Source: an uncultured Acidobacteriota bacterium (GTDB lineage: Bacteria; Acidobacteriota; Vicinamibacteria; Vicinamibacterales; UBA2999). From it: DNA of 64,000 bases. Location: contig CAVYZT010000013.1 of the NCBI GenBank assembly GCA_963773045.1, positions 207,137-271,136 on the forward strand, written 5' to 3'. This document shows, one piece after another, positions 4,335-47,747 of the stretch (the stretch's first letter is position 1; every line of letters begins with the position of its first letter). The notes under the pieces were generated by a model that saw only the letters and a list, made by a program, of their open reading frames with translations, did no database searches and was not told the DNA's origin. A program made the translations under genes and the position numbers.

Positions 4335-4419
4335 CAGGTTCAGCAGGTTCAGCAGGTTCAGCAGGTTCAGCAGGTTCAGCAGGTTCTGCGGGTTCTACAG
4401 GTTCTACAGGTTCCACGGG
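4335..4419. repeat. Tandem nonamer array (CAGGTTCAG)n, 5 perfect units then degenerate units
   Basis: Read directly. The same array with the same GAAC left flank recurs at 54440-54492. Confidence 0.9.
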
Positions 4420-7005: not shown

Positions 7006-7014
7006 GACGCAGGA

Positions 7015-7176
7015 TAGTTCAAAGTTGAAAAGTCCAAAGTTGAAAGTTTCAGTTTGGAGTTCAGTGAGAAGAATGTGAAGTTCCAAGTTCAGCAGCCGCG
7101 CGATGACTTTGAACTTGAAACTTCAACTGAACTGCAGACTTCAACTTAGAACTTTCAACTCTTGAACTTTCAACTT
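7015..7176. repeat. AT-rich imperfect inverted array of GTTGAAAGT/AGTTCAG words (two roughly 70-bp arms around CCGCGCGATGAC)
   Basis: Read directly. The reverse complement of the right arm re-uses the left-arm words in the same order. Confidence 0.8.
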
Positions 7177-7523
7177 TTTTCTGACGTCGTCCCCTTCATC
7201 CGTTCGTGCGCCTGCCGGTGCCATTCCTCGAACCGGTCGCGGACATGTGACGGCGGTCCGTAATAGGACCAGTGGCCCCACGGCCTCCACCAGAAGCCCC
7301 TGATGACCATCACCCAGAAGAAGATGAACAGCAGCGGAAAGAGGAATCCGAATCCCCACGGCCGATGCCACCCATAAGGGTACGGCGGCAGGCTGCCTGC
7401 CGACGCGCCGACCTGCGCCAGGCCCTGGGAGAGGCCCACGTTGTAGGCCACGCCGGCGGCAATGGCGACGGCCACTGCGGCCACCGCTGCGACGAACCAT
7501 CCGTTCCATCGATTCCCGTTCAT
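7170..7523 (-). CDS. Small Trp/Gly/Pro-rich membrane protein, first gene of the RR-HK operon
   Basis: ATG 7523 preceded by GGAGGG. One TM helix, then PYPYGWHRPWGFGFLFPLLFIFFW..FEEWHRQAHERM. Confidence 0.55.
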   Translation of the reverse strand: MNGNRWNGWFVAAVAAVAVAIAAGVAYNVGLSQGLAQVGASAGSLPPYPYGWHRPWGFGFLFPLLFIFFWVMVIRGFWWRPWGHWSYYGPPSHVRDRFEEWHRQAHERMKGTTSEKS

Positions 7524-7827: not shown

Positions 7828-8874
7828 TCAGGGCTCGTCGTGCGGGACGATTTCGACCGTGGCTTGGGGCACGGCGCCGAGCAGCTGCTCGAGCGTCGAC
7901 CCGTGCCAGAGCAGTTCCAGGCGGGAACGGGCGCCCTGCCCGAGGATGACGCGGGTGATCTTCTCGCGTCGGGCAAAGGCGATCAGCCCGTCCGACGCTC
8001 GGTCGGCCTCGACGGGAACGACCATGGCGCCGAGACTCCTGGCGAGCTCGACATTTCCCTGCAAGATGCCGGCGTCGCCCGAGGAGCCATGATCCGCTTT
8101 CCCGTGGAGTGTCTCCACATGCGCGGCATACCAAGTCGACCCCAGCCTGTCGGCTAGCGCCGCAGCCGCGCGAATCGCTCGAGCTGCGCTCGCGGTCGCG
8201 CTCATCCACACCATGACGCGCTCCGGCGCCGGATGCGGCTGAATCCCGTGGCGCCAGTGAGTGCCGACCCGTTCTGCCGGCATCGGCCGCGGGCCTGCGG
8301 CCGAACGCCTCTCTAACTCTTCGGCAGCAATGTCGACCTGCATCACGTCATCGGCCCGGTCGAGAAAGGCTTCTGGAATCGTCTCCGTGGCGCGCACGCC
8401 GGTCTCCCGGGCGATGGCGTCCTTCAGCGACTCGATATGCTCGATGTTCACGGCCGTGATCACGTGAATCCCGGCGTCGAGAATGTCGATCACGTCCTCG
8501 TAGCGGCGCTCGCGGCGATGATCCGGCACAGCAGTGGACGCCAGCTCGTCGACGATGCAGGTGCGAGGCTTTCGCCGGACGATAGCATCGACGTCCGGCT
8601 CCTCGACCGACACGCCGCCGTAGTGGCTCGTGCGGGACGGGATGACCTCCAGGCCTTTGAGCGCCAGGTCCTGGTCGAGACGGGCGGACGGCGCGAGATA
8701 GCCGATCACGACGTCGACGCCATCGGCAGCGAGCGCTTGCGCTTCGTTGAGCATGTGACGGGTTCTGCCCAAATGCGCCCCGGCACCGATGTAAATGCGC
8801 AGTCTCGCGCGATCGCGCTCCTTGACCTGGGCCAGCAGCTCGTCGGCAGCGGAATGAACGTGCGGTGTGGACAT
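7828..8874 (-). CDS. Stand-alone KdpD N-terminal sensor domain plus Usp-like domain protein (paralogue 1, Walker A Lys replaced by Arg)
   Basis: LRIYIGAGAHLGRTRHML...VVIGY...VDELA...RRYEDVIDILDAGIHVITAVNIEHIESL matches the KdpD N-terminal pattern. The ORF ends after the Usp-like part. Confidence 0.8.
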   Translation of the reverse strand: MSTPHVHSAADELLAQVKERDRARLRIYIGAGAHLGRTRHMLNEAQALAADGVDVVIGYLAPSARLDQDLALKGLEVIPSRTSHYGGVSVEEPDVDAIVRRKPRTCIVDELASTAVPDHRRERRYEDVIDILDAGIHVITAVNIEHIESLKDAIARETGVRATETIPEAFLDRADDVMQVDIAAEELERRSAAGPRPMPAERVGTHWRHGIQPHPAPERVMVWMSATASAARAIRAAAALADRLGSTWYAAHVETLHGKADHGSSGDAGILQGNVELARSLGAMVVPVEADRASDGLIAFARREKITRVILGQGARSRLELLWHGSTLEQLLGAVPQATVEIVPHDEP

Positions 8875-8969: not shown

Positions 8970-10079
8970 ATGCGCGACGACGCGTTGGCGCTGGTTGCCG
9001 TCGCCGCCATCGTCGCGCTCTTGCGGCTGGCCAGCCCGGTTGCGAATACGACGGTGGCGGCACTCTGCCTGGTGCTGGTCGTCCTGATCGTTGCCCGGAC
9101 GCTGAGCCGCCGCGCCGCGCTCACAGCGTCGCTCGTTGGCGTCCTCGCCTTCAACTTTTTCTTTCTTCCTCCGGTCGGTACGCTCACCATTGCCGATCCC
9201 CTGAACTGGGTCGCCGCTGGCGTGTTCCTGGCCCTGTCGTTGACCGTGAGCGAGCTGTCGGCCCGTGCCCGGCAGCAGACCGAGAAGGCGCACGCCCATC
9301 GTCTGGAGGCGGAGCGGCTCTATCGCGAATTGCAGGCCGCCTTCGATCGCGAGGCGCAGACCGAAGCCGACCGGCGGAGCGAGCGTCTGAAGAGCGAGCT
9401 GCTCGATGCCGTCACCCATAATCTGCGCACGCCGATCACGTCGATCAAGGCGTCAACGACGGCCCTGCTGTCACAGCCGTCGACCATGGGAGAAGCCGTT
9501 CGCCGAGAATTGTTGACCGTTGCGAATGAAGAAGCCGATCGACTGGATCTTCTGGTGGAAGACCTGATCGGCCTGGCTCGCATCCAGGCTGGAGAGCTTG
9601 GCCTTCAGATGTCGTGGTGCAGCCTGGACGATGTGATTGGCAGCGCCATCAAACGTGCCGAACGTCTGCTCGGGGCGCACACGCTCGAGGTTTCGGTCCC
9701 GCCGGATCTTCCGGTCGTCCGGGCCGACGCGCGCGCGCTCGAGGAGGTGGTGTTTCAGCTGCTGGAGAACGCGGCGAAGTATTCGCCACGCGGATCGCGC
9801 ATCGCGGTATCGGCGCGCGAAGAACCCGGTGAGCTGATCGAGATCCGAGTAGAGGACGAGGGTCCCGGCGTCGCCGCCGACGAGCGCGAACGCATCTTCG
9901 ACAAGTTCTATCGGTCGCCGGCCGCGGCGACCGCGGCCAGCGGCTCCGGGCTGGGCCTGGCGATCGTTCGTGGCATCGTCGATGCGCATCGAGGGGACGT
10001 GATGGTCACCGACCGCGCGGCGCAGCCCGGGGCGCGGTTCATCGTTCGTCTGCCGATTGGCGACGAGGACAACCCGTGA
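8970..10079 (+). CDS. kdpD: KdpD C-terminal half: DUF4118-type membrane domain plus HisKA plus HATPase_c
   Basis: Begins with KdpD-like TM helices (LAFNFFFLPPVGTLTIADP). H-box THNLRTPITSI. G-boxes DEGPGV and GSGLGLAI. Confidence 0.85.
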   Translation: MRDDALALVAVAAIVALLRLASPVANTTVAALCLVLVVLIVARTLSRRAALTASLVGVLAFNFFFLPPVGTLTIADPLNWVAAGVFLALSLTVSELSARARQQTEKAHAHRLEAERLYRELQAAFDREAQTEADRRSERLKSELLDAVTHNLRTPITSIKASTTALLSQPSTMGEAVRRELLTVANEEADRLDLLVEDLIGLARIQAGELGLQMSWCSLDDVIGSAIKRAERLLGAHTLEVSVPPDLPVVRADARALEEVVFQLLENAAKYSPRGSRIAVSAREEPGELIEIRVEDEGPGVAADERERIFDKFYRSPAAATAASGSGLGLAIVRGIVDAHRGDVMVTDRAAQPGARFIVRLPIGDEDNP

Positions 10080-10804
10080 GCCGGCCATTCCGAGTGCTGG
10101 TCGTGGACGACGAGCCGCAGATTCGGCGCGTCCTTCGCTTGGCCCTCGACAGTCAGGGATTCGATCTTCGCGTCGCCGCCGACGGCGAGTCGGCGCTGGA
10201 TACGATGCGCGACTGGCCACCCGATCTCGTCATCACCGATCTGTCGATGCCAGGAGTGGACGGTCTCGAGCTCTGCCGTCGCATCCGCGAGAAGAGCGCG
10301 GTGCCGATCATCGTCCTGTCGGTGAAGGGCGAGGAGCGGTCGAAGGTGGCCGCGCTCGACGCGGGCGCGGACGACTATGTGACCAAGCCCTTCGGCATGG
10401 ACGAGTTGCTCGCCCGAGTCCGGGCGGTTTCCCGCCGCGCCCCGGCCGACAGCCAACACGCCTCCCGGCTGACCGTGGGTGTGTTCACAATCGATATCGC
10501 TGCGCACACCGTGTTGATCGAAGGGCGGGATGTGCGGCTGACGCCGAAGGAGTTCGACCTGCTCGTCCATTTCGCTCGCAATCCAGGGAAGGTTTTGACC
10601 CATCGCGCCCTACTGGCGGGCGTATGGGGCGCCGAACATGCCGAGCAGAGCGAATACCTGCGCGTGTTCGTCGGGCAGCTGCGTAAGAAGATCGAGCCCG
10701 ACCCGTCGGAGCCGACGTACCTCCGCACCGAGCCGTGGGTCGGCTACCGGTTCGACCCGGGCGCCGCGGGCGGCGAACGCGATCCGCGGCCGGCCGCCGG
10801 CTGA
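10076..10804 (+). CDS. kdpE: OmpR-family response regulator KdpE
   Basis: 4-nt overlap with the kinase. REC plus winged helix (LRTEPWVGYRF). KdpE-like FGMDELLARVRA. Confidence 0.85.
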   Translation: MSRPFRVLVVDDEPQIRRVLRLALDSQGFDLRVAADGESALDTMRDWPPDLVITDLSMPGVDGLELCRRIREKSAVPIIVLSVKGEERSKVAALDAGADDYVTKPFGMDELLARVRAVSRRAPADSQHASRLTVGVFTIDIAAHTVLIEGRDVRLTPKEFDLLVHFARNPGKVLTHRALLAGVWGAEHAEQSEYLRVFVGQLRKKIEPDPSEPTYLRTEPWVGYRFDPGAAGGERDPRPAAG

Positions 10805-10930
10805 AAATCCCCGGCGGCGCGGAAAACCCAGCGCCTCACATCGAGCCGGCAGCGGTCTTTCCTCCGGAAAATCGAATATGCCCAGGAAACCAGGCGGCAC
10901 AGCTCATGCGCTACGCCTTGGCCGTGGGCG

Positions 10931-10947
10931 TTTACAACTTCTTTAGA
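10931..10947 (+). promoter_or_regulatory. Candidate KdpE operator: TTTACA-N5-TTTAGA direct repeat
   Basis: Two hexamers 11 bp centre to centre in the only AT-rich patch upstream of the porin-kdp genes. A TAGACT -10-like hexamer lies at 10978-10983. Confidence 0.35.
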
Positions 10948-10992
10948 AATCCTTTGATCGGCCCTTATGGCCGGCTCCCTAGACTGGGCTGC

Positions 10993-12186
10993 ATGCGCAA
11001 CTCATTCTCTGTTCTTGCAGTCGCTGCCATGCTAAGCCTGGTTGCGGTTGGGGCGAGCGCACAGACGCCGGCACCGGCCGAGCCGGCCGAGCCGGCCCAG
11101 GCGTCTCCGGCGGCGGCCACGGCTGCCGACTCCTGGCGCGACATGACCTTCGGTGCGACGCTCGAGGCTTATTACCAGTTCAACGGCAATCATCCGCCCG
11201 ATCGCATCTCGTTGCTGCGCGCCTACGACACGCGCGCCAACACGTTTGCGATTCAACAGGCGACGCTCGTCACCGAGCTGGCGCCCGCCGTCGACAAAGG
11301 ACGCCGCTTCGGGCTGCGCGCGGATTTGATGTTCGGCCAGGCCACCGAGACCGTTCAGGGCGGGCCGGCCAACGAGCCGCGCCCCGATGTCTATCGCCAC
11401 ATCTGGCAGGCGTACGGATCCTATGTCTTCCCAGTCGGCAAAGGCTTGCGCACCGACTTCGGCAAATTCGCTTCGAACCTCGGCTACGAGACCAACTACG
11501 CGAAGGACAACGATCACTTCTCACGCGCGTATCTCTTCAACTTCCTGCCGTTCTATCACTCCGGCCTGCGCACGTCGCTGCCGGTCGGTGACAAGGTGAC
11601 GCTGATGTACATGCTGACCAACGGCATCCAGCAGACCGAGGATTTCAACGACTTCAAGTCGAATCACTTCAGCGCCGTGATTGCGCCGGTCGCCAACGTC
11701 TCGTGGACGACGAGCTATTACTTCGGCCAGGAACAGGCCGATGGCGGAGATCCGGGCGGTCCGGATGGATTCTTCCGCGTGTTCGACACCTACTTCTCCT
11801 GGACGCCGAACGCGCGCGGGCTGATTGGCGCCGACTTCAACCACGTTACCAACGAGGTGAACAAGGGTGACGAGGCGACTGCCCTCACCGGCTTGGGCCT
11901 TTACGGTCGGTTCAAGCCGTCGGATCCATCGACGCTCGCCATCCGCTACGAGCGGCTCGACGACGAAGGACTGTTCGGCGGCATCGATCAGGTACTGCAG
12001 GAGATCACCTTCACGGCGGAATGGAAGTTTGCCGACGGGTTCCTCGCGCGTCTGGAGCTCAGGGACGACTGGTCGAACGAGCGCTTCTTCACCGGCAGCG
12101 GCGGCGGCACCGACAAGCGCACGAGCCAGCCGACGGCGATGCTCGCCGTCGTGTGGTGGATGGGGAACAAGACGGGGACTTGGTAG
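10993..12186 (+). CDS. Outer-membrane beta-barrel porin (OmpL/porin-2-like), kdp-associated
   Basis: Signal peptide MRNSFSVLAVAAMLSLVAVGASAQ. Alternating beta-strand pattern. C-terminal aromatic residue (...KTGTW). Confidence 0.7.
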   Translation: MRNSFSVLAVAAMLSLVAVGASAQTPAPAEPAEPAQASPAAATAADSWRDMTFGATLEAYYQFNGNHPPDRISLLRAYDTRANTFAIQQATLVTELAPAVDKGRRFGLRADLMFGQATETVQGGPANEPRPDVYRHIWQAYGSYVFPVGKGLRTDFGKFASNLGYETNYAKDNDHFSRAYLFNFLPFYHSGLRTSLPVGDKVTLMYMLTNGIQQTEDFNDFKSNHFSAVIAPVANVSWTTSYYFGQEQADGGDPGGPDGFFRVFDTYFSWTPNARGLIGADFNHVTNEVNKGDEATALTGLGLYGRFKPSDPSTLAIRYERLDDEGLFGGIDQVLQEITFTAEWKFADGFLARLELRDDWSNERFFTGSGGGTDKRTSQPTAMLAVVWWMGNKTGTW

Positions 12187-12276
12187 CTGTTCGCCTTTCG
12201 CTTTTCGCAATTCGCAACGCACCCACGCTCGTGCGAACCGCGAACCGCGAACCGCGAATAGCGAACAGCGAATTGC
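12187..12276. repeat. Inverted heptad arrays (NNTTCGC)n ... (GCGAANN)n forming a long imperfect hairpin
   Basis: Left arm gctgttcgcctttcgcttttcgcaattcgc. Right arm gcgaacc x3, gcgaata, gcgaaca, gcgaatt. Confidence 0.85.
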
Positions 12277-12295
12277 AAAAACCCTTGGAGGTTTG

Positions 12296-12379
12296 ATGCT
12301 GCTAATTGGAATGATCGTTCTTGGGCTCGCAACCTTTGCCGCGATGCTGGGGTTCGTCACGTTCTGCGATCGCATCTGA
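12296..12379 (+). CDS. 27-aa hydrophobic peptide upstream of kdpF (KdpF/KdpG-like accessory peptide?)
   Basis: GGAGG 4 nt before the ATG. MLLIGMIVLGLATFAAMLGFVTFCDRI forms a single TM helix. Below the ORF-track size cutoff. Confidence 0.4.
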   Translation: MLLIGMIVLGLATFAAMLGFVTFCDRI

Positions 12380-12388
12380 GGGGAACGC

Positions 12389-12469
12389 CATGACCGTCCT
12401 GTCTCTCGTATTGAGCATCGCCGCATTCGTGTACCTCGTTTACGCGATGCTGCGCCCAGAGCGGTTTTG
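12389..12469 (+). CDS. kdpF: K+-transporting ATPase subunit F
   Basis: 26-aa MTVLSLVLSIAAFVYLVYAMLRPERF with the KdpF C-terminal signature (Y-L-x-Y-A-[LM]-L-R-P-E-R-F). GAGGGG RBS. Immediately upstream of kdpA. Confidence 0.75.
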
Positions 12470-12510
12470 AACCGCGAATAGCGAACCGCGAACAGCGAAC
12501 AGCGAACAGC
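12470..12510. repeat. Heptad array (GCGAANN)n between kdpF and kdpA
   Basis: gcgaata gcgaacc gcgaaca gcgaaca gcgaaca. Same unit as 12233-12276. Confidence 0.85.
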
Positions 12511-12512
12511 AT

Positions 12513-14219
12513 ATGACCACCGAATACATCGCCATCGTCATCACGATCGCATTCACGATCGCGACCAGTCTGATCCTCGGCCGGTACATGTTCAAGGTGT
12601 TCACCGGCCAGCGGACCCTGCTCGATCCGGCCTTGGTTCCGATCGAGCGCCTGGTGCTCCGGGTGACCGGTGTGGATCCGAATCAACAGCAGGATTGGAA
12701 GCAGTATTCGGTGTCACTGCTGGTCTCGAACGTCGTGATGTGGCTCGCCACCTTTGCCATCGTCTCGCTTCAGCAGTGGCTGCCGATCAATCCCGACGGC
12801 ATCGCGAACATGGAGCCGACGCTGTCGTTCAACACGATCTCGAGCTTCACGACCAACACCAACCTGCAGCACTACAGCGGCGAGACGGGGTTGTCGTACT
12901 TCTCGCAGATGTTCGTCATCTCGTTTCTGCAATTCGTGACCGCGGCCACCGGCGTCGCCGCGTGCATCGCCACCATCCGCGGCCTGGGAAACAATCGCCT
13001 CACCGAGCTTGGCAACTTCTACGTCGATCTCACGCGGGCGACCGTTCGCCTCTTCCTCCCGCTGGCCCTGCTGGTCTCGGTCGTGATCATGTCGCAGGGA
13101 ACGCCGATGACGTTCGAGGGGGCGGCCAAGGCGACGACGGTTGAGGGACAGGAACAGTCGATCGCGCGCGGCGTGACGGCGGCAGTCGTGTCGATCAAGC
13201 AGCTGGGCACCAACGGCGGTGGGTACTTCGGCCCGAACTCGGCGCATCCCTTCGAGAACCCGACGCCGCTCACCAATTTCGTCGAGACGTGGTCGATCAC
13301 GATCATCCCCATGGCGATGGTCTGGACTCTGGGGTACATGCTCGGGCGGCGCCGCCTCGCCGTTACGATCTTCGCGACCATGCTCGCCCTCTATCTCCCG
13401 ATGGTCGTGTTCGGCGTGTCGCAGGAAGTCGGGGGCAATCCCGCGATTGCGCGCATGGGCGTCGATCAGTCCACCGGGTCGATGGAGGGCAAGGAAGTGC
13501 GATTCGGCGCCGGGCTCTCGGCGCTGTGGGCGGTGACGACGACGGTGACGTCGAACGGGTCGGTGAACAGCATGCACGACTCGATGACGCCGCTCGGCGG
13601 GTTGATGCCCCTCATCGGCATGTGGCTGAACAACATCTTCGGCGGCGTTGGTGTCGGCTTCATCAACATGCTGATCTTCGTCATCGTCGCGGTGTTCGTC
13701 GCCGGCATGATGATCGGCCGCACGCCCGAGTTCCTGGGCAAGAAGGTCGAAGCCAAGGAGATGAAGCTGGCCAGCCTGGCGATGCTCTGGCATCCGCTGG
13801 CCATTCTCGTGGGCACCGCCATCGCCGCCTACGTGTGGGTGATCACGCCCGATCCGGGAACGGCGCTGGCCTGGCTGAAGAATCCGGGTCCGCATGGCTT
13901 CTCCGAGATGTTGTACGAGTTCAGCTCGTCGGCGGCGAACAACGGCTCCGGCTTCGAAGGGCTGGGCGACAACACGCCCTTCTGGAACATCGCCTGCGGC
14001 CTCGTGATGCTGCTGTCGCGCTACATCCCGATCATCGCGCCGCTGGCGCTGGCGGGATCGCTGGCGGCAAAGCCGGCGGCGCCGGAGACAGCCGGCTCGC
14101 TTCGAGCCGACACGCCGACGTTCGGCTTCACGCTGTGGGCCGTGATCGTGATTCTCGGTTTGTTGATGTTCATGCCGGTCGCAGTGCTGGGACCGATTGC
14201 GGAGTACCTGGCGCTGTGA
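12513..14219 (+). CDS. kdpA: K+-transporting ATPase subunit A
   Basis: 568-aa polytopic protein with a KdpA-like N-terminus and length, sitting within the kdp context. Confidence 0.95.
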   Translation: MTTEYIAIVITIAFTIATSLILGRYMFKVFTGQRTLLDPALVPIERLVLRVTGVDPNQQQDWKQYSVSLLVSNVVMWLATFAIVSLQQWLPINPDGIANMEPTLSFNTISSFTTNTNLQHYSGETGLSYFSQMFVISFLQFVTAATGVAACIATIRGLGNNRLTELGNFYVDLTRATVRLFLPLALLVSVVIMSQGTPMTFEGAAKATTVEGQEQSIARGVTAAVVSIKQLGTNGGGYFGPNSAHPFENPTPLTNFVETWSITIIPMAMVWTLGYMLGRRRLAVTIFATMLALYLPMVVFGVSQEVGGNPAIARMGVDQSTGSMEGKEVRFGAGLSALWAVTTTVTSNGSVNSMHDSMTPLGGLMPLIGMWLNNIFGGVGVGFINMLIFVIVAVFVAGMMIGRTPEFLGKKVEAKEMKLASLAMLWHPLAILVGTAIAAYVWVITPDPGTALAWLKNPGPHGFSEMLYEFSSSAANNGSGFEGLGDNTPFWNIACGLVMLLSRYIPIIAPLALAGSLAAKPAAPETAGSLRADTPTFGFTLWAVIVILGLLMFMPVAVLGPIAEYLAL

Positions 14220-14222
14220 AAG

Positions 14223-14296
14223 GGCTTGGGACTTGGGGCTTGGGACTTGGGGTTTAGCTGGCCTTCAGTCCCAGGCCCCAAGCCCCAGGCCCCAAG
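14223..14296. repeat. Inverted heptad arrays (CTTGGGR)n / (CCCCARG)n forming a hairpin between kdpA and kdpC
   Basis: ggcttgggacttggggcttgggacttgggg ... agtcccaggccccaagccccaggccccaag. Confidence 0.85.
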
Positions 14297-14308
14297 ACGG
14301 AGAAGACA

Positions 14309-14902
14309 ATGTTGAAGGAACTGAGACAAGGCGTCCTCTTCACGCTGATCACGATGCTGATGCTCGGCGGTGTCTATCACGGTGTGCTGTGGACGATCGG
14401 GCAGGTCGCGTTTTCTTCTGAGGCAGAAGGCAGCCTGATTCGGCGGGCGGACGGCACGATCGTCGGCTCGCGGCTGATCGCCCAGAAGTTCACGCGGCCC
14501 GAGTACTTCCAGCCACGCCCGTCCGGCGTGGACTACAACGCGGCTTCGACCGGCGGCACCAACTACGGGCCCTCCAATCCGGATCATCTGAAGGCGGTTC
14601 AGGAGCGGCTCGACGCCGTCATCGCGCTCGACAAGGTCAAGGCGGGCGAGGTGCCTTCCGAAATGGTGACTGCGAGCGGCGGCGGCCTCGATCCTCACAT
14701 TCCGCCCGCCGCAGCGCGGCTTCAGTCGGCTCGAGTGGCCGCCGCGCGCGGCGTGCCGGCCGATCGAGTGCGAGCGTTGATTGATGAACACACCGAGGCG
14801 CCGACGCTCGGCTTTCTCGGTCGTGCCCGGGTCAACGTGCTGGAGCTGAACCTGGCCCTCGACGAGGCGCTCGGCGCACCCAAGCCGGTTGAACCGCGGT
14901 AG
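14309..14902 (+). CDS. kdpC: K+-transporting ATPase subunit C
   Basis: N-terminal TM helix. [31 protein letters not shown] and [11 protein letters not shown] match KdpC conserved blocks. Confidence 0.95.
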
Positions 14903-14939
14903 GCACAGCCCCAAGCCCCAAGCCAAAAGACACAGAACC

Positions 14940-17045
<2,106 letters not shown>

Positions 17046-17046
17046 G

Positions 17047-17313
17047 GAAGGCAGACAAGGCAGAAGGCACAAGGCAGAAGGCACAAGGCAGAAGGCACAA
17101 GGCAGAAGGCACAAGGCAGAAGGCGACAAGGCAGAAGGCACAAGGCAGAAGGCAACAAGGCAGAAGGCACAAGGCAGAAGGCAACAAGGCAGAAGGCACA
17201 AGGCAGAAGGCACAAGGCAGAAGGCACAAAGGCAGAAGGCACAAGGCAGAAGGCACAAGGCAGAAGGCCCAAGCCCCAAGCCCCAAGCCCCAAGCCCCAA
17301 GCCTCAAGCCTCA
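17047..17313. repeat. About 220-bp heptad array (GAAGGCA/CAAGGCA, 14-bp super-unit, about 30 heptads) followed by (CCCCAAG)n
   Basis: Read directly. It starts 2 nt after the kdpB stop and ends 9 nt before the next start. Occasional 8-nt units occur. Confidence 0.95.
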
Positions 17314-17321
17314 GGACAACC

Positions 17322-18509
17322 GTGACGACCAACCGCAGCGCGTTCGAAGATCGGCGTCCCGATGCGGCGTCGCTGCTCGCCAAGCTCAACGAGAGCGACC
17401 GGGCTCGGCTTCGCGTGTACATCGGCGCGGCGCCAGGGGTCGGCAAGACCTATCAGATGCTCGAGGACGCGCATCAACTGAAGCGCCAGGGCATCGACGT
17501 CGTCATCGGCTACATCGAGCCGCACGGCCGCGCCGACACACTGTCGCTGGTCGACGGGCTGGAGATCGTCCCGCGGCGGGTCCTGTCGTACCGGGACGTG
17601 AAGCTCGAGGAGATGGATGTTGAGGCGATCAAGGCGAGGAAGCCGCAGATCGTCCTGGTGGACGAGCTGGCGCACACCAACGTGCCCGGCTCAGCGCACG
17701 AGAAGCGGTACGAAGACGTCCTCGATCTGCTGAACAGCGGCATCTCCGTGATCACGGCGATCAACATTCAGCACATCGAGTCGCTCAACGACGTGGTCGT
17801 CAGAAGCAGCGGCATTCACGTGCGCGAGACCGTTCCAGACTGGTTTCTGCACCGCGCCGACGAGGTGGTCAACGTCGACGTCTCGGTCGAGACGCTGCGC
17901 ACGCGCCTGCTGCAGGGCAAGATCTACGGCGTCGAGAAGATCGAGCAGGCGCTCGCCAACTTCTTTCGCAAGGGCAATCTGTCGACGCTGCGCGAGCTGG
18001 CGCTGCGCCAGCTGGCGATGAACCAGGCCGAGCAGTCGCACGAGTATCGCGAGCGCGAAGGGCTCGAGGACCCGGCGATTCCGGAAAAAGTGATGGTCGC
18101 CATCGCGTCGCGCGGCAGCGCGACGAGACTGCTGCGCACCGGGTCGCGAATCGCCGGCCGGCTGGCGTCCGACTGGTACGCCGTGTACGTCGAGACGCCG
18201 AGCGAGGAGCCAGGGAGTATCACTCCCGAGGCGCACGCCGCCTTGATGAACAACATCCGCTTCGCCGAGCATCTCGGTGCGCGCGTCGTCAAGCTCAAGG
18301 GCAAGCGCGTGGCCGACGCGCTCATCGAGTTCGCGCGCCGCGAAGGCATCACGCACGTGATCTTCGGGCAGTCGGCCAGGTCGCGCTGGAGCCTCTTCTG
18401 GAGCGGCTCGATCGTCAACCGCTTCCTCGCCGAGGTGAGGAATGCCACCGTCCACGTCGTCCCGCAGGGGCCAGACGACGAGGCGAAGGCGGGCGAGGCG
18501 CCCGCATAA
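17322..18509 (+). CDS. Stand-alone KdpD N-terminal sensor domain plus Usp domain protein (paralogue 2, intact Walker A)
   Basis: LRVYIGAAPGVGKTYQML...VVIGYIEPHGR...VDELAHTN...KRYEDVLDLLNSGISVITAINIQHIESL, then a Usp-like half. No membrane or kinase part. Confidence 0.85.
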   Translation: MTTNRSAFEDRRPDAASLLAKLNESDRARLRVYIGAAPGVGKTYQMLEDAHQLKRQGIDVVIGYIEPHGRADTLSLVDGLEIVPRRVLSYRDVKLEEMDVEAIKARKPQIVLVDELAHTNVPGSAHEKRYEDVLDLLNSGISVITAINIQHIESLNDVVVRSSGIHVRETVPDWFLHRADEVVNVDVSVETLRTRLLQGKIYGVEKIEQALANFFRKGNLSTLRELALRQLAMNQAEQSHEYREREGLEDPAIPEKVMVAIASRGSATRLLRTGSRIAGRLASDWYAVYVETPSEEPGSITPEAHAALMNNIRFAEHLGARVVKLKGKRVADALIEFARREGITHVIFGQSARSRWSLFWSGSIVNRFLAEVRNATVHVVPQGPDDEAKAGEAPA

Positions 18510-18511
18510 CC

Positions 18512-20360
18512 ATGACGCTCCGCACACGCCTGATCGGGACCTTCGTGGTCATCCTCGCCGCGCTGGCCGGCCTCGGCGCATGGAGCGCCTGGCGGCTGTG
18601 GGACATGGGTGCCGTCTCCAACCGCATCATCGCGGACAACTACGGGTCGGTCGTGGCCGCCCAGCAGATGAAGGAGAGTCTCGAGCGCCAGGACTCGGCG
18701 CTCCTCTTCGCGCTGGTTGGCGAACGCGATCGGGCCGAGCGGCAACTGGCAGAGCATCGGGCGCGGTTCCGCGCCGCGTTGGCGGTTGCCGCCGACAACA
18801 TCACCGAGCCCGGTGAATCGGAGATCATCGCCGCGATCTCGAAGGCAGAGCCGCAGTACGCGGCGACCATCGACCGGCTGATGGCCGCAACCCTCTCTCC
18901 CGCTCCCGGCAAGAGCGTGCGCGGGTATTTCGACGAGGCCGAGCCCGCGTTCAACCAGCTTCGCGCCGACAGCGACGCCCTGCTCACCTTGAACCAGGAG
19001 GCGATGCAGCGAAAGGCCACCGACGCGGCGACGATCGCCCGCCGCAATTTCACGGTGGCGGTGACGCTGGCCGTGATCCTGACCCTGGCTGGCGGCCTGA
19101 TCGCGGCGGTCGTGGCCGGCGGGGTGCTTCGTCCCATTGGCGAACTGACCCGTGCGACGACGGCCATCGCGGCCGGTGAGCTGGATGTCGCCGTTCCGGT
19201 CCGGCGCGACGATGAGATTGGGCGGCTGGGGCAGGCGTTCAACGACATGGCCGGGCGGCTGCGCGAAGTGCGCGAGTCGAACCTCGGCGAGCTGCTGATG
19301 GCGCGGCAAACCGCCGAAGCCGCGATCGATTCGCTCTACGACCCGGTGATCGTCACCGACGCGCAGGGCCGGGTCACGCGGCTCAACAACGCCGCCGAGC
19401 CGCTGTTCGGGCGTGAGTCCGACGCGCACGGCCGCCCGCTGGCTGAGGTGGCGCGCGATCCGCTCGTCGCCGACGCCGTCAGCGAGGTGCTGAGCTCGCA
19501 GCAGGCCGTGGCCCTCGAAGGCGCGGCGGCGACTTTCACCGTGAACGTGGCCGATACCGAGCGCAGCTTCAGGCTGCGTTCGACGCCGATGCGCGACTCG
19601 CACGGACAGCTGCTGGGCGCCGTGCTCCTGCTCGAGGACGTCACGCATCTTCACGAAGTCGATCGCCTGAAATCGGAGTTCATCGCCGCGGCCTCCCACG
19701 AGCTGCGCACGCCATTGACGAGTCTTGAAATGGGGCTGCACCTCGTCCTCGAAGATCCGAGCAATCTCACCGCGCGCCAGCAGGAGATTCTGTACACGTG
19801 CCGCAGCGAAAGCCGGCGGCTCGCCCGACTGTCGACCGACTTGCTCGATCTGTCGAAGATCGAGTCGGGTCGGACGCCCCCGCGACTGGCGAGCGTTCCG
19901 ACCGCCGCGCTGGTGCGCAGCGCCATCGAGCCGCTCCGCCTGCAGGTCGAGGCCCAGGGGCTCGGCCTCGTCGTCGAGGTCGAGCCAGACCTGCCGCCGG
20001 TGCTTGCCGACCGCGCCCAGATCGAGCGAGTTCTCGCCAATCTCGTGACCAATGCCGCGCGTGCGACTCCGCGCGGCGGCCGCATCACGGTCACGGCCGA
20101 CCTGCGGCAGGACTACATGGCGATTGCCGTCGCCGACACCGGCGTGGGCATCCCGGCGGAGTACCTGAGACGCATGTTCGAGCCGTTCGTCCAGGTGCCC
20201 AACGTCCCGGCTGGCGCCGGCGGCCTCGGTCTGGCCATCTCGCAGACGGCTCATCGAGGCGCACCACGGGCAGATCTCCGCTCAGTCGGCGCCGGGATCG
20301 GGCGCCGTCTTCACCTTCACGTTGCCGGTCGCACACGCGGCGGCCGAGGTGGAGACGTGA
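18512..20360 (+). CDS. Sensor histidine kinase (TM-4HB periplasmic-TM-HAMP-PAS-HisKA-HATPase_c) with an apparent 1-nt insertion near 20246
   Basis: H-box SHELRTPLTSL. N and G boxes present. After GLGLAISQ the conserved tail [28 protein letters not shown]..ET-stop is found only in the +2 frame (stop 20358-20360). Confidence 0.8.
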
Positions 20361-21061
20361 GAATCCTGATCGTGGACGACGACGGGCCGTCGCGCCACAT
20401 GTTCCGCTTTGCGCTCGAGGACCAGCACGAGCCGCACGAAGCCGCGGACGGGGCCTCGGCGCTCGAGGTGATGCGCGCGAAGGGGCCGTTCGATGTGGTG
20501 CTGCTCGACCTCAGGATGCCGGGGATGAGCGGCCTCGAAGTGTTGAAGCGCGTTCACCGGCGCTCGCCGCAGACCGCGGTCATCGTGATGACGGCGTACA
20601 GCTCGTTCGCCGTTCCGGCCCAGGCGATGCGCGCCGGCGCGACGCACTTTCTGAGCAAGCCCACCGATCCGAGCGCGCTCCGCGCGGCGGTGGCGGCGAC
20701 GCGCCGAAGGGTTGTGCCGCCGGACTTGGCCATCACGCTCAACGGATTTACCGTCGAGCCGTGGGGCGACCCGGCCCGGGTCGAACGCGACGGCTCGGTC
20801 GTGCACACGTTCCATGTGAGTCACGGGCTTGAATCATGGAACCGTGTCATGCAGGTACGCCTTGGACCACAGGCGCTCCAGCGCACCATGGCCCGAAACC
20901 AGGACAACGTCAGCACGGTTGCCGCTCAAATTGCGCGCCGTACCTTGGCGGACCACTTGTGGCGTGAGGGGACGTTGCCACCGAAGGAAGGACTGGTCGT
21001 CGACGAAGCGGATGCCTCGCTCGTTGCGGCGGTCGTCAGCGAGGCCGGCACCGCACAGTAG
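20357..21061 (+). CDS. Response regulator: REC domain plus about 110-aa C-terminal domain of unknown type
   Basis: GTG 20357 overlaps the restored kinase stop (GTGA). VRILIVDDD...VVLLDLRMPGMSG...SKP. The C-terminal half carries no motif I recognise. Confidence 0.75.
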   Translation: MRILIVDDDGPSRHMFRFALEDQHEPHEAADGASALEVMRAKGPFDVVLLDLRMPGMSGLEVLKRVHRRSPQTAVIVMTAYSSFAVPAQAMRAGATHFLSKPTDPSALRAAVAATRRRVVPPDLAITLNGFTVEPWGDPARVERDGSVVHTFHVSHGLESWNRVMQVRLGPQALQRTMARNQDNVSTVAAQIARRTLADHLWREGTLPPKEGLVVDEADASLVAAVVSEAGTAQ

Positions 21062-21076
21062 TGTCGGACGTTTTGC

Positions 21077-22000
21077 GTGGGGTATGACATGAGCCCGATC
21101 ACTCGCGTGCTTGGCGGCGCGGTCATGGCCGTTGCCGTTGGCTGCACCCAGGGCCCGACGACGATCCTGGAGCGGCTGTCCGAGGCGCGCGCGCTGGCGT
21201 CGGAAGCCATCGTGCAGTTGACGAAAGCCGCCGACGCGTCCAACTGCGCCGTCATGGCCGGCAGCGACGAGACCGCCGCAAGCTGTGTGAAGGAAGCCGA
21301 TCGAGCGAACGCTGCGGTCCAAACCACCACTGCGCAGCTCAGACCGCTCCTGGCCGGCCTCGGGTACTCGAAGGAATCGCAACTGCTCGATGAGTTCGAC
21401 GGGCGCTTTGCCGCGTATCGGGAGTTGGACCGGGAGATCCTGGAGATGGCGGTTGAGAGCAGCAATCTGAAGGCACAACGGTTGTCCTTTGGTCCGGCGC
21501 GAGAGCAGGCCGATGCGGTCGGCGACGCGCTCGGCTCGATTGCGCCGCTCGATGTCGCGAAGCCGTTGGCGACCGGGCCTGCCACTGGTCCAGGCGCGAG
21601 CGCCGCCGGGCGCATCAGTGCCCTTGCGGCGATCGTGATGATGTCGGTCCGCGAGATCCAGGCTCTGCAGGCGCCTCACATCGCCGAGCCGAACGACGCA
21701 CCGATGACGCAGATCGAGCAGCGGATGAGCAAGTTGGAAGAGACGGCCCGCGGGGCTCTTCAAGCCCTGGCGTCGACGATTCCGCCGCCGGCGCAGCCCA
21801 ACGTGAAGGCTGCTGCCGCGGCATTCGATCAGTTCATGAAGATCAATGCCGAGATTCTCAGTCTGTCGCGGCGAAACAGCAACGTCCGCGCGCTTGCCTT
21901 GACGATGGGCAAGAAGCGCACGCTGATCGCAGCCTGCGAGGAGAGCCTGCGCGCGCTGCAGGATGCGCTGGCCAAGCGCGGGTTCACTGGGACGAGGTGA
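21077..22000 (+). CDS. Probable lipoprotein with an all-helical four-helix-bundle (MCP N-terminal-like) domain
   Basis: Leader ..GGAVMAVAVGC. Long amphipathic helices ending ...SRRNSNVRALALTMGKKRTLIAACEESL, typical of 4HB_MCP sensors. Confidence 0.55.
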   Translation: MGYDMSPITRVLGGAVMAVAVGCTQGPTTILERLSEARALASEAIVQLTKAADASNCAVMAGSDETAASCVKEADRANAAVQTTTAQLRPLLAGLGYSKESQLLDEFDGRFAAYRELDREILEMAVESSNLKAQRLSFGPAREQADAVGDALGSIAPLDVAKPLATGPATGPGASAAGRISALAAIVMMSVREIQALQAPHIAEPNDAPMTQIEQRMSKLEETARGALQALASTIPPPAQPNVKAAAAAFDQFMKINAEILSLSRRNSNVRALALTMGKKRTLIAACEESLRALQDALAKRGFTGTR

Positions 22001-22078
22001 GCATCTGCTTTCGGCACTCTGCTTTCGGCCTTCGGCAAGAGAGCTGATAGCTGAAAGCTGAGAGCTGAGGGCACTCCT

Positions 22079-23939
22079 TTACAGTTCCACCTGAATGCCG
22101 ATCTCGACGACGCGTTCGGGGGGGATTCTGAAGAACGACGTCGCTCGCACGGCATTGCGAGCAGTGAAGACGAACAGCCGCTCGCGCCACAGCGCCATCC
22201 CAGGCCGCTTGGTGGCAATCAGCGTCTCGATGCCGAGAAAGAACGTCGTCCGGGCCATTCGGAACGGGAACCCATCCTTCGCCGCGTCCTTCAGCGCCTT
22301 CGGCACGTCCGGCTGCTCGGCAAAGCCGTACTGCAGAAACACGCGGTAGAAGCCCTCTTCCAGGGGTTGGATCTGAATCCGCTTGGCGGAATTCACGTGA
22401 GGCATATCGCTGGTCGTCACCGTCAGCAGAATCACGCGTTCGTGCAGCACCTGGTTGTGCTCGAGATTGTGGAGCAGCGTTGGCGGTGTGCCCTGACCGC
22501 TGCTCGTCATGAAGATCGCCGTGCCCGACACGCGGGGTGGCGGCTGCCACTTGATGTCCTTCATGAACCGCTCGAGCGGATAGATGAGCTCGTTGATGCG
22601 CGAGGCGAGGAGCGCGCGACCCGCTTTCCACGTGGACAGGACGGTATAGACCAGCGCGCCGACGATGAGCGGGAACCAGCCGCCATCGGCGATCTTCGTG
22701 AGGTTGGCGCCGAAGAATCCCAGATCGATGGCGAGAAAGAACCCGGCCAGCGAACCGGCGACGGCGCGCGACACGCCCCACGAATCGCGCGCGACGAGAT
22801 ACGCCAGCAGAGTCGTGATCACCATCGTCGACGTGACGGCGATGCCGTAGGCGGCCGCCAGCGCGCTCGAGCTGCGGAAGCCGAGCACCAGGCCGATGGT
22901 CGCGATCATCAGCGCGGTGTTGACCTGCGGGATGTAGATCTGCCCCTCGGTTGTCTCCGAAGTGTGCTCGATGTCCAGCCGCGGACAGTAGCCGAGCTGG
23001 ATCGCCTGCCGCGTCAGCGAAAAGGCGCCCGAGATCAGCGCTTGTGACGCGATGACGGCTGCGGAAGTCGCGAGAATCACCAGGGGAAAGAGCCCCCAGC
23101 GCGGCGCCATGTGATAGAAGGGCGACTCGGCCAGCTCCGGATGATCGAGCAGCATCCCTCCTTGACCGAGGTAGTTCATGAACAGCGCCGGGAGCACGAG
23201 CGTAAACCAGGCCACGCGAATCGGCTGGCGGCCGAAATGGCCCATGTCCGCGTAGAGCGCTTCGCCGCCGGTCACCACCAAAAACACCGAGCCGAGCACG
23301 ATGAAGCCGTGCCATCCATTGCCGATCAGGAATCGCGCTGCGTGGAGCCGGGTTGAGCGAGGCGAGCACGTGAGGATTCTGAACGATCCAGTACACGCCG
23401 AGCCCGCCGATGGTCAAAAACCAGACCACCATGACCGGCCCGAAGAACGTGCCGACTCGATGCGTCCCGTGGCGCTGAATGAGAAACAGCGCGAAGAGGA
23501 TGGCGATCGTGGTCGGGACCACGATCGGCTCGAACACGTCGGTCGCAACCGCCAGGCCCTCGACGGCGCCCAGCACCGAGATGGCCGGTGTGATCATGCC
23601 GTCGCCGTAGAGCAGGGCCGCGCCGAACAGGCCCAGCGTAATCAGCCTGGCGCGGCTGCGCCGCCGGGCGGCCGGCTGCTGCGAGACCAGGGCCATGAGC
23701 GCCAGGATGCCGCCTTCGCCCTTGTTGTCGGCGCGCATGACGAAGACCAGGTACTTGATCGAGATGATGAACGTCAGCGCGTAGAAAATCAGCGACAGCA
23801 CGCCGAGTACGTTGTCGTGTGTCGGCGTGATGCCATGCGCGCCATGAAAGCATTCCTTCAAGGCATAGAGCACGCTCGTGCCGATGTCGCCATAGACGAC
23901 TCCCAGCGCCCCAAGTGTCAGTACAGCGAGCTGTCGGCC
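22079..23939 (-). pseudogene. kup: Kup/HAK/KT K+ uptake transporter, disrupted (frameshift at 23345 and no in-frame start codon)
   Basis: N-terminal part LGALGVVYGDIGTSVLYALKE... lies in one frame. HAARFLIGNGWHGFIVLGSVFLVVTGGEALYADMGHFG... lies in another. Confidence 0.8.
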
Positions 23940-29418: not shown

Positions 29419-29477
29419 GTAGCGCCCAGCTTACGGACCGCGAAGGCCGGCGGGAATGCGGTCAATTGTCGCAGCTG

Positions 29478-29549
29478 GTTGCAGCTGGGACAGTCCCCGT
29501 GGTTGCAGCTGGGGACAGTCCCCGGGGACTGTCCCCGGGGACTGTCCCC
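29478..29549. repeat. Four tandem copies of the 13-bp palindrome GGGGAC-N-GTCCCC, nested in an outer inverted repeat (29463-29474 / 29592-29602)
   Basis: Read directly. 29511-29536 is a perfect 26-bp palindrome. Lies in the divergent TBDR/regB region. Confidence 0.9.
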
Positions 29550-30933: not shown

Positions 30934-30980
30934 GGCTGGTGGGGCTGGTGGGGCTGGTGGGGCGGGTGGGGGGGTGAGGC
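30934..30980. repeat. G-rich decamer array (GGGCTGGTGG)n, G-quadruplex-capable
   Basis: GGGCTGGTGGGGCTGGTGGGGCTGGTGGGGCGGGTGGGGGGG begins directly after the regB stop. Confidence 0.85.
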
Positions 30981-47720: not shown

Positions 47721-47747
47721 GACGCGACGAGTCGCCAGCGTTCGACA

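Follow-up and report, generated by a model that had tools for sequence, protein, structure and literature searches.

Why is the gap between two genes of a potassium transport operon filled with copies of a seven-nucleotide unit? The question is raised by a stretch of 64,000 nucleotides from an uncultured Acidobacteriota bacterium (contig CAVYZT010000013.1), which is referred to as the window. The gap lies between kdpB, coding for the P-type ATPase subunit (14940-17045, + strand), and the gene for a stand-alone KdpD N-terminal sensor (KdpD-N; 17322-18509, + strand). An initial annotation, made from the sequence alone, had assigned both genes and had described about 270 bp of pure heptad repeats between them. 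The assignments were confirmed by Pfam: KdpB carries the domains E1-E2_ATPase and Hydrolase, and a frame check places its TAG stop 1 nt before the array; KdpD-N, which starts with GTG, carries PF02702 and a Usp domain (PF00582) and is a 100% match to P0001. Such heptamer arrays are of a kind already known, while their occurrence in Acidobacteriota is new.

A single array in one register

The gap measures 276 nt, between the TAG stop at 17043-17045 and the GTG start at 17322. Tandem Repeats Finder (TRF) reports a period of 7 with 30.9 copies for 17047-17268, an alternative reading with period 14 for 17055-17273 (ACAAGGCAGAAGGC, 15.4 copies, 95% match, score 395), and an adjoining array of AAGCCCC with 6.7 copies (17264-17310, 95% match). 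When the gap is parsed on the invariant AAG, 37 units are obtained, 31 of which are exactly 7 nt long, and all of them share one register. The two arrays, which had been described separately, are thus a single one. Its units are AAGGCAG (15 copies), AAGGCAC (10), AAGGCCC (1), AAGCCCC (4) and AAGCCTC (2), and five further units have one or two extra bases.

According to both TRF and unit parsing, the main part (17047-17268, + strand) consists of AAGGCAG and AAGGCAC in strict alternation, which makes a higher-order unit of 14 nt in about 15 copies. The AAGGCCC, AAGCCCC and AAGCCTC units form a C-rich tail (17264-17310, + strand) in the same AAG register, ending 11 nt before the GTG of KdpD-N. 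A 29-nt block with the variant AAGGCAAC is present as a duplicate inside the main array. The one-base variants always occur in a unit of the AAGGCAC type, and one of them lies inside the duplicated block. The strict alternation of two units and the duplicated block point to multi-unit slippage or unequal exchange. In length the array is an outlier among its kind (median 4.4 copies, 90th percentile 6.4 copies, next longest example 10.9 copies).

The gap is composed of 112 A, 89 G, 73 C and only 2 T, so that 73% of the sense strand is purine. Because this strand is nearly free of T, it contains neither start nor stop codons and all three frames are open. The open frames are a by-product of composition and not evidence for coding. 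A coding or read-through linker was rejected, as the frames are open merely from the scarcity of T and the frame shared by kdpB and kdpD-N is a one-in-three coincidence. G exceeds C in the main array, and only the last ~47 nt of the gap are C-rich and G-poor. No significant RNA structure was found in the array (fold z = +1.29). A promoter and terminator scan found no such site in or beside it, and no sigma-70-like promoter was found in a scan of 10000-22500. In the whole window there is no Rfam match at or above the gathering score.

Turnover of the array between related genomes

A protein search with KdpD-N gave contigs from closer relatives (L081-L083 and L086-L091), with identities of 92, 90, 88, 87, 86 and 79%. 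The window and L081-L083 are the four close genomes among which KdpD-N is 86-92% identical; the KdpB of the window is 93-96% identical to those of L081-L083. Orthologous gaps were compared in these four genomes and in L086 and L087. It had been suggested that the arrays might be hypervariable, and the comparison revealed strong variation between relatives. The gap between kdpB and kdpD-N has 276 bp in the window, 43 bp in L083, 108 bp in L082, and about 180 bp in L081 (183 bp), L086 and L087. In L083 it contains the unit of the window, GAAGGCA, in 4.5 copies as compared with about 31. The L082 gap holds four copies of ACCGGCA and five of GCGAANN, and that of L081, L086 and L087 holds an octamer-based inverted structure. 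The arrays turn over much more quickly than the proteins encoded on either side (91-96% identity for KdpA and KdpB), and the window copy is apparently a recent, large expansion.

The unit itself is found more widely. In L083, GAAGGCA occurs at two sites (9961 and 18326). In L088, where KdpB is 76% identical, a rotation of it, (GCAGAAG) x5.9, directly follows the kdpB stop and precedes kdpC. L081 also carries the composite GAAGGCA-AAGCCCC-AAGCCTC, there in the gap between the porin gene and a small open reading frame (ORF), and about 70 nt align nearly base for base. Arrays of GCGAANN, CCCCAAG/CTTGGGG and GCCGAGA likewise occupy different gaps in different genomes. Within the window, CCCCAAG occurs at 14270, 14907 and 17264, GCGAANN at 12186, 12233 and 12469, and the nonamer CAGGTTCAG at two sites. 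The initial view that the units are locus-specific has therefore to be given up: they are a small repertoire of recurring families that move between gaps.

Three short-read contigs (L089-L091), which code for a KdpD-N identical to that of L088, begin inside the corresponding GAAGGCA array (positions 1-26); such arrays thus seem to interrupt short-read assembly. When metagenomes were scanned with the conserved 3' end of kdpB, just two chance matches were returned, both in unrelated genes. Look-ups of exact protein sequences for KdpD-N, KdpC and KdpA of the window and for P0001 gave no match.

Heptad arrays as a class

The class survey covered the window and 80 related loci (81 sequences, 1.28 Mb, 83% called coding). 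The 80 loci were obtained by scanning a genome collection with KdpD-N and are mostly from Blastocatellia and Pyrinomonadaceae metagenome-assembled genomes (MAGs), with 68-75% identity. Genes were called with a simple, crude codon-usage caller, and tandem arrays with at least three copies were identified by TRF. We found 149 period-7 clusters, 109 intergenic and 40 'coding', as compared with at most 10 for any other period. The pattern of short tandem arrays noted in the window is thus found across the lineage, is overwhelmingly of period 7, and is mostly non-coding, 109 of the 149 clusters being intergenic though 83% of the DNA is coding. It is neither rare nor confined to the window, since 43 of the 81 sequences carry at least one period-7 array. 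Some loci of 21 kb have 8-11 of them, and others, including several GC-rich ones, have none, so the trait is lineage-patchy.

In the window, TRF reports 15 period-7 rows with three or more copies, as compared with five in total for 20 shuffled versions that preserve its dinucleotides (mean 0.25) and none for 50 kb of Escherichia coli DNA including kdpFABCDE. All of the stronger arrays in the window have a coding fraction of 0 according to the crude gene caller, and the few 'coding' ones that were checked lie at the 5' ends of ORF calls that had been over-extended because the arrays contain no stop codons. The lag-7 autocorrelation of intergenic DNA vanishes once the TRF arrays are removed, and the signal therefore comes from discrete arrays and not from a diffuse periodicity. 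Among the arrays listed in the initial annotation, those at 12187, 14223, 14901, 44381, 46597, 4335, 30934 and 54440 are present; the one at 7015 turned out to be a heptad/15-mer pair and not a 9-10-mer, and the one at 52625 is weak.

The arrays are predominantly located between co-directional genes (113 arrays), with 7 in convergent and 5 in divergent gaps; the latter are 5 of 125 arrays, while divergent gaps account for 14% of the gap bp. They fill their gaps closely, starting at a median of ~6 nt after the upstream stop and ending ~9 nt before the downstream start. Direct arrays of the relatives show no sense-strand bias (A exceeds T in 26 versus 21, and 27 versus 19 are purine-rich). Purine richness is thus particular to the focal array.

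Units had initially been described as having five fixed and two variable positions. This is correct for GCGAANN and is a modest general trend, while the focal unit has six fixed positions and one variable one. Across the survey, variation inside arrays is concentrated in one or two adjacent positions (0.71 versus 0.59 expected, p = 1.6e-4), a pattern that higher-order duplication of a variant unit can mimic. In the kdp operons of Blastocatellia (L001-L080), heptad units are strongly enriched in CTGA and TCAG (20 and 13 observed versus ~2.5 expected), and likewise in CTGAC/GTCAG. These counts are inflated by orthologous arrays, and the CTGA core is not shared by the lineage of the window.

The kdp operon as a hot spot

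In the 80 loci, the number of arrays per intergenic kb is 2.47 inside the kdp operon and 0.33 outside. When only co-directional gaps of 40-400 bp are considered, an array is present in 40 of 140 gaps inside kdp and in 11 of 145 outside (odds ratio 4.9, p = 4e-6, the genomes being non-independent). The gaps of the kdp operon are thus a 5-8-fold hot spot for heptad arrays. The concentration is equally evident in the closer genomes: 20 of 22 heptad arrays of L081-L083 lie between the porin gene and kdpD-N, and 12 of 15 in the window lie inside the K+ cluster at 6-24 kb. Arrays outside kdp flank acyl-CoA synthetases, PriA, MacB/HlyD, udk/PNP, MgtE, MurC and SufB and, in the window, occupy gaps of an operon for a response regulator (RR), a histidine kinase (HK) and DegP. 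As these genes are unrelated, a specificity of the arrays for K+ functions was rejected.

The window and L081-L083 share the operon order RR, porin, small ORF, kdpF, kdpA, kdpC, kdpB, kdpD-N and hybrid kinase. Their kdpA-C-B arrangement departs from the canonical kdpA-B-C, which is found in L088 and in most of the 80 distant loci. The order differs again in L012 (C-A) and L027 (B-C-A). Compared with L088 (5499-9993), KdpB and KdpD-N encoded in the window are 76-79% identical, while KdpA and KdpC are just 43-48% identical (window operon at 12513-17045). Based on these alignments, the operon looks mosaic and reordered.

Inverted partners and hairpins

An inverted partner was defined as an array no more than 400 bp away with a unit that is the reverse complement, one mismatch being allowed. 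Such a partner is present for 101 of 175 arrays, resulting in heptad hairpins of the type (unit)n - loop - (complement)n. In hairpins of GCGAANN units, pairing involves the five constant bases, and the two variable ones make up regular 2x2 internal loops. An example from the window directly follows the porin stop (12186-12272, + strand): about four TTCGC-containing units, the complement of GCGAA, are separated by a loop from six copies of GCGAANN. It folds into 5-bp helices with 2x2 internal loops between them (RNA fold -45.3 kcal/mol, z -6.9). The hairpin between kdpA and kdpC (14222-14296, + strand) consists of CTTGGGR x4, a loop and CCCCARG x4 and is more stable still (-60.6 kcal/mol, z -7.0); its left arm is at the same time an array of G3-4 tracts. 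Direct arrays occur in two further kdp gaps of the window: GCGAANN x6 fills the gap from the kdpF stop to the kdpA ATG (12469-12510, + strand), and a short AGCCCCA x2.6 array, which is of the family of the focal tail, lies between kdpC and kdpB (14907-14924, + strand).

Hairpins are found at the same gaps even when the unit differs. Between kdpA and kdpC, each of the four close genomes has a hairpin, though the unit of L083 is another one (CTTGGGR versus GCGAAGA). In the gap between kdpF and kdpA, a full hairpin is present in L081-L083, built from GCCGAGA in L081 and from GCGAACA in L082 and L083. In three of the four genomes the arms in this gap are unequal, a short left one being followed by a loop and a long right one that reaches the ATG. 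In L082 both hairpin arms have expanded together, to ~10 and ~9 units.

Several Pyrinomonadaceae show a related arrangement, in which an AAGGATG array begins inside the 3' end of the KdpD-N ORF (L014 11120-11175, L030 11105-11169). The KdpD-N stop codon is located within the array and a TTCATCC partner reaches the ATG of the next gene. The AAGGATG unit occurs in at least eight genomes.

If hairpins were selected at the RNA level, G-U pairs should be favoured over A-C mismatches on the transcribed strand. We compared 41 hairpins in co-directional gaps. The sense strand is the more stable one in 26 and the antisense strand in 14 (Wilcoxon p = 0.20), and G-U pairs number 123 in sense and 113 in antisense (p = 0.56). 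With neither kind of asymmetry in these 41 hairpins, RNA-level selection on them was rejected.

Relation to known repeat systems

Heptanucleotide arrays are not new to bacteria. According to Mrazek 2007, as far as that study is represented in PMC4679880 and PMC4692102, heptanucleotides are the most abundant among repeats of 5-11 nt in many bacteria, including the GC-rich Burkholderia, Xanthomonas and Actinobacteria, and polymerase slippage was proposed as their cause. The initial statement that GC-rich genomes offer no equivalent is contradicted by this record, and the GGGAATC arrays of Xanthomonas and the paired hepta- and octamers of Geobacter (PMC2700814) are close parallels. Heptamers of Xanthomonas and Nostoc are over-represented, biased to intergenic regions, and vary in length and sequence between close relatives (PMC4692102). 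We found no literature description of such heptamer arrays in Acidobacteriota. The arrays described here agree with bacterial heptanucleotide simple sequence repeats in their tandem 7-nt units, the excess of period 7, the non-coding bias, the dispersed families and the variation at the same neighbourhood.

The short tandemly repeated repetitive (STRR) sequences of heterocystous cyanobacteria, to which the array had been compared initially, are an apt analogy. They share tandem 7-nt units (GGGGAYT in Nostoc PCC 7120), several families per genome and the lack of an established function, as well as a strong non-coding bias that includes gaps within operons (e.g. pecE-pecF, PMC4692102). The phylum and the units are different, however, and the arrays described here have more families, are rapidly replaced, form inverted pairs in more than half of the cases and have a hot spot in kdp. 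They are not STRR in the strict sense, since the host belongs to the Acidobacteriota and not to the cyanobacteria, as indicated by an ADOP-family permease encoded in the window and by nearest relatives that are Blastocatellia and Acidobacteriota MAGs. The units of the window presumably also differ from the STRR consensus units.

The GGGAATC repeats of Xanthomonas (Rehm et al. 2015, PMC4692102) are similar in several respects: a GC-rich genome, an intergenic excess of heptamers, typically ~4 units with some inverted copies, scarcity between divergent genes, the same neighbourhoods with variable length and sequence, and no regulatory role found. Xanthomonas, however, has essentially one unit, which forms G-quadruplexes (G4), while the arrays described here have varied units, most of which are not prone to form G4, the focal one having just GG. 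The GGGGAYT repeats of Nostoc share the intergenic bias, ~4 units as the typical number, occasional inversion, depletion in divergent gaps, variation and the lack of a demonstrable regulatory role (PMC4692102). The TAACTGA repeats of Beggiatoaceae, cyanobacteria and Bacteroidetes (MacGregor 2015, PMC4679880) are direct heptamers a few nt 5' of start codons with up to tens of copies in some genomes, and a post-transcriptional role has been proposed for them; their CTGA core is the one enriched in the units of Blastocatellia. They differ in having a single unit that contains stop codons and is nearly always direct (1 inverted set among 170), and CTGA is absent from the units used in the lineage of the window. 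Similarities also exist to the paired hepta- and octanucleotides of Geobacter metallireducens (Aklujkar et al. 2009, PMC2700814), with 4-5 tandem units of 7-8 nt, often in opposite-strand pairs of variable spacing, at dozens of loci and with a class consensus plus variable positions. These were annotated as putative global-regulator sites or RNA elements, belong to few fixed classes and were not described as filling the gaps of one operon.

Other types of elements can be set aside. The array is not a clustered regularly interspaced short palindromic repeat (CRISPR) array, in which repeats of 23-50 nt alternate with unique spacers of about the same length, as the 7-nt units are contiguous and lack spacers. 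Repetitive extragenic palindromic (REP) sequences and the bacterial interspersed mosaic elements (BIME) made from them, as well as enterobacterial repetitive intergenic consensus (ERIC) sequences, are dispersed, transcribed, hairpin-forming elements of co-directional gaps that can stabilize upstream mRNA segments and vary between strains. REP/BIME are imperfect palindromes of unit length (20-40 nt) with a conserved 5' GTAG (REP) and a dedicated REP-associated tyrosine transposase (RAYT). The heptad arrays resemble all of these as dispersed hairpin elements in co-directional gaps but consist of tandem heptads and not of single palindromes, and the focal array has neither a palindrome, as its fold z score indicates, nor GTAG. 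Nor is it a contingency repeat for phase variation, which would be located in an ORF or between the -35 and -10 elements of a promoter and switch a gene by its copy number, as the array lies between a stop and a start inside an operon, no promoter was found, and the unit has no start or stop codon. A canonical G-quadruplex repeat has four or more tracts of at least three G with short loops; the CTTGGGR arm at 14222-14252 agrees with this pattern, but the focal unit, which has GG only, does not. One could regard the arrays as a variant of the known kind, given that hairpins dominate, that unit families are many and that one operon is a hot spot; no new mechanism is demonstrated for them.

Origin and possible function of the focal array

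On balance, we favour the interpretation that the focal element is a hyper-expanded slippage microsatellite of a known kind, similar to the STRR and Xanthomonas repeats, and that its role would at most be that of an untranslated spacer by which kdpD-N is uncoupled from kdpB. A lineage-specific mutational tendency would create and resize 7-nt tandem duplications by replication slippage or unequal exchange. Arrays with a unit in common would be replaced or relocated among gaps by ectopic recombination, and purifying selection would restrict arrays to non-coding DNA. A small GAAGGCA array just 3' of kdpB, as in related lineages, would have grown here to 37 units, the last expansion probably occurring in two-unit steps of 14 nt. 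We do not think it likely that the sequence of the unit is read specifically by a factor.

Given the gene arrangement and the absence of promoter- and terminator-like sites, the array is probably co-transcribed with the operon. The resulting RNA of 276 nt would be almost free of U, without start and stop codons, unstructured and untranslated. As a passive spacer it may break the translational coupling between kdpB, for the pump, and kdpD-N, for the sensor, at a boundary of structural and regulatory genes where uncoupling would do no harm or even be of use. Downstream expression may in addition be reduced by Rho-type polarity, through the long untranslated stretch and the C-rich, G-poor tail. 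A Rho utilization site is expected to have ~60-80 nt or more of unstructured, C-rich, G-poor, untranslated RNA; all 276 nt are predicted to be untranslated and unstructured, but only the last ~47 nt are C-rich and G-poor. The gaps are dispensable, since compact kdp operons without them exist in E. coli and, save for one heptad gap of 45 bp, in L088.

For hairpin arrays the consequences would be different. The stem has the upstream stop at its 5' base and the downstream start at its 3' base and would bring the two together. Its base would be melted by a ribosome that terminates there, and coupling could thus survive the insertion of a hairpin. This geometry fits an established model, in which translational coupling is achieved by ribosome-assisted unfolding of intergenic structure (PMC4538824). 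It is plausible that inverted arrays are tolerated inside operons because the stem juxtaposes stop and start.

Several observations weigh against the slippage interpretation. Slippage alone explains neither the strong preference for 7 nt nor the frequency of inverted complementary partners (101 of 175), and it leaves the hot spot in kdp unexplained. Hairpins persist at the gaps between kdpA and kdpC and between kdpF and kdpA while the unit changes, a pattern that suggests structural selection or a mechanism involving a template. GAAGGCA is retained 3' of kdpB between lineages with KdpB just 76% identical, which is longer than a neutral microsatellite might last. The confinement of variation to one or two adjacent positions could be the mark of a recognized 5-nt core. 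It should also be kept in mind that we infer transcription, coupling and polarity alike.

Another interpretation, which we regard as possible though unlikely, is that the arrays are functional elements of polycistronic mRNA. Hairpins would then serve 3'-end protection, processing by RNase III or stop-start coupling, and the long direct array would be an attenuator or tuning knob, open to evolutionary change, for the ratio of KdpD-N to pump, for example by Rho loading on the AAGCCCC tail. This would agree with array positions in co-directional gaps within operons, abutting stop and start codons, with the very high stability of hairpins (z -4 to -7), with an architecture that is kept at a gap despite unit replacement, and with the joint expansion of both arms in L082. 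It would also agree with the location of the focal array exactly at the boundary of structural and regulatory genes and with its unstructured, C-rich, G-poor tail. However, the 41 hairpins have neither a G-U excess nor a stability advantage on the sense strand, content turns over between genomes that are 86-92% identical, and compact kdp operons work without such gaps. The tail, moreover, has just ~47 C-rich nt and follows a main array with more G than C.

It is distinctly less probable that heptad arrays are self-propagating intercistronic modules, created by a period-7-specific, hairpin-templated mechanism or by selection for a stop-start stem and acting in addition as recombination boundaries at which cistrons are swapped. 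The kdpA-C-B order as compared with kdpA-B-C and the mosaic histories of KdpA/C versus KdpB/D-N fit recombination at such boundaries, as do the GAAGGCA array that travels with kdpB and the AAGCCCC arrays that flank both kdpC and kdpB. If this were true, matched inverted arrays would preserve translational coupling across long spacers, and whole cistrons with their spacers could be swapped or reordered.

Arrays might also act at the DNA level, where a regulator or a protein of the nucleoid would recognize a 5-nt core every 7 bp and use the array as a binding platform or as structural DNA (cruciforms, slipped strands), as proposed earlier for the paired hepta- and octamers of G. metallireducens. 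We consider this improbable. Inverted pairs are common, hairpins are strand-symmetric, units have a fixed core with one or two variable positions, and the CTGA/TCAG enrichment in Blastocatellia recalls MTYCTGA of Geobacter and TAACTGA of Beggiatoa (PMC2700814, PMC4679880). Against this stand the dozens of unrelated units that differ at the same gap between close relatives, the avoidance of divergent, promoter-containing gaps, and a spacing of 7 bp, which places successive sites on different faces of the helix.

The initial annotation had suggested an action of the purine-rich strand through Shine-Dalgarno (SD)-like binding. In this case 30S subunits, or a different protein that binds RNA, would be held 5' of kdpD-N by the AAGG/GAAGG units, which would offer many SD-like or standby sites. 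We give this slightly less credence than a DNA-level platform. It is true that the strand is 73% purine, nearly U-free and unstructured, that AAGG recurs every 7 nt, and that GAAGGCA is retained after kdpB in L083 and L088. But predicted pairing with the anti-SD reaches -6.1 kcal/mol, and this merely by bridging two units, as compared with -17 kcal/mol for a consensus SD, and is similar to background intragenic sequence. The genes of the window have little SD signal overall, orthologous gaps of L081 and L082 carry unrelated units, direct arrays in relatives lack a purine bias, and the final 60 nt before the start codon belong to the C-rich tail and not to the AAGG units.

The length of the array, but not its existence, could be an artefact if the repeat was mis-extended or collapsed in a long-read metagenome assembly. 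The relatives are from assemblies with contig_N names, apparently long-read metagenome assemblies, a frameshifted kup gene in the window would fit residual indel errors, the homologous array interrupts the short-read contigs of a relative, and five units have one or two extra bases. Still, we judge an artefact very improbable: homologous arrays occur in the independent assemblies L081, L083 and L088, and the one-base variants are structured, being always of the AAGGCAC type and in one case part of the duplicated 29-nt block.

Least credible of all is a K+-responsive G-quadruplex switch in transcripts for K+ homeostasis, which would fold at high K+ in competition with hairpin or unstructured states, based on the GG tracts every 7 nt of the focal array or the G3-4 tracts at 14222-14252: the kdp hot spot, the CTTGGGR x4 arm that obeys the G3+ x4 rule with a C-rich partner opposite, and the K+-dependent G4 formed in vitro by Xanthomonas GGGAATC heptads (PMC4692102) speak for it, but focal GG allows two-tetrad quadruplexes at best, most kdp-gap units of the relatives are not G-rich (GCGAANN, AAGACCA, AAGGATG, ATTTGAG), and arrays also occur beside genes unrelated to K+.

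Other repeats and genes of the window

Further heptad arrays are located outside the kdp operon. Heptad/15-mer inverted arrays (7016-7177, - strand), a further example of a heptad hairpin, lie between a second KdpD-N-like gene and the gene for an OmpR-type RR (6325-7086). A hairpin of GCTTTCGGC... and GAGAGCT x4.4 (22005-22075; RNA fold z -4.8) is found between the convergent 4HB and kup genes, and its unit family is that of the kdpF-kdpA hairpin of L081. Between an HK gene and degP/htrA there are four direct arrays (44227-44518, - strand), which read on the + strand as TCCGGCA, GTTCCCG, CCGGCAT x10.9 and GGACTGT x7.6, the latter two spanning 44377-44518. Octamer arrays resembling GATCTGGY (46598-46694, - strand) are positioned 5' of the RR gene of the same RR-HK-DegP operon.

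Other periods occur as well. TRF identified the nonamer CAGGTTCAG with 8.8 copies at 4335-4413 and again, 50 kb apart, with 5.8 copies at 54440-54491. Additional 9-mers are found at 30933-30971 (GGGCTGGTG) and 42685-42710 (TCTCCCTGA). REP-like clusters with periods of 35-40 nt (46712-46944 and 47567-47734) contain GTAGG(G/C)CACGACTTTAGTCGTGC and GGCATGACTAAAGTCATGCC hairpins. The adjacent ORF (47700-48359) was considered as a RAYT transposase and rejected, as it has no Pfam match. The palindromic 13-mer GGGGACTGTCCCC is present three times in tandem at 29476-29549, in the gap between a divergent TonB-receptor-like gene and its neighbour. A 32-nt tandem repeat, TCGGCGGACCGCCGTAGCCTTAGCGGAGGCTGG x2.2 (55640-55711), is closely matched by a copy in L088, a distant relative (~16650-16700), which suggests another dispersed repeat family.

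Some genes of the K+ cluster deserve mention. KdpD is split into separate proteins, with two stand-alone KdpD-N genes (7828-8874, - strand, and 17322-18509, + strand). A kinase with DUF4118, HisKA and HATPase domains (8970-10079, + strand) is followed by a KdpE-like regulator (10076-10804). Just 5' of kdpF (12391-12471), an ORF for a hydrophobic protein of 27 aa (MLLIGMIVLGLATFAAMLGFVTFCDRI, 12297-12379) is preceded by the SD sequence GGAGG and is kept in L081-L083 with synonymous changes; it may code for an unannotated small membrane protein of the kdp operon. The kup gene (21984-23873, - strand) extends over two frames, with the N-terminal K_trans domain in the ORF 21984-23873 and the remainder plus K_trans_C in the ORF 22079-23299. 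It is intact in L082 and L083 (613-614 aa), and the split is either a pseudogene or a long-read indel error.

Significance

The arrays have a practical effect, in that they appear to break short-read assemblies and that those units which lack stop codons let ORF callers over-extend genes. In a wider context, intergenic heptanucleotide repeats, which have been known since the STRR of cyanobacteria but are explained neither in their function nor in their period of 7, are extended to the Acidobacteriota, a phylum that is dominant in soil and yet little studied. The kdp operon is an unusually clean comparative system, with arrays in nearly every gap in dozens of genomes, in which units turn over while the hairpin architecture stays and one copy has expanded about eight-fold. 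This makes slippage versus selection, action at the RNA versus the DNA level, and translational coupling across hairpins directly testable.

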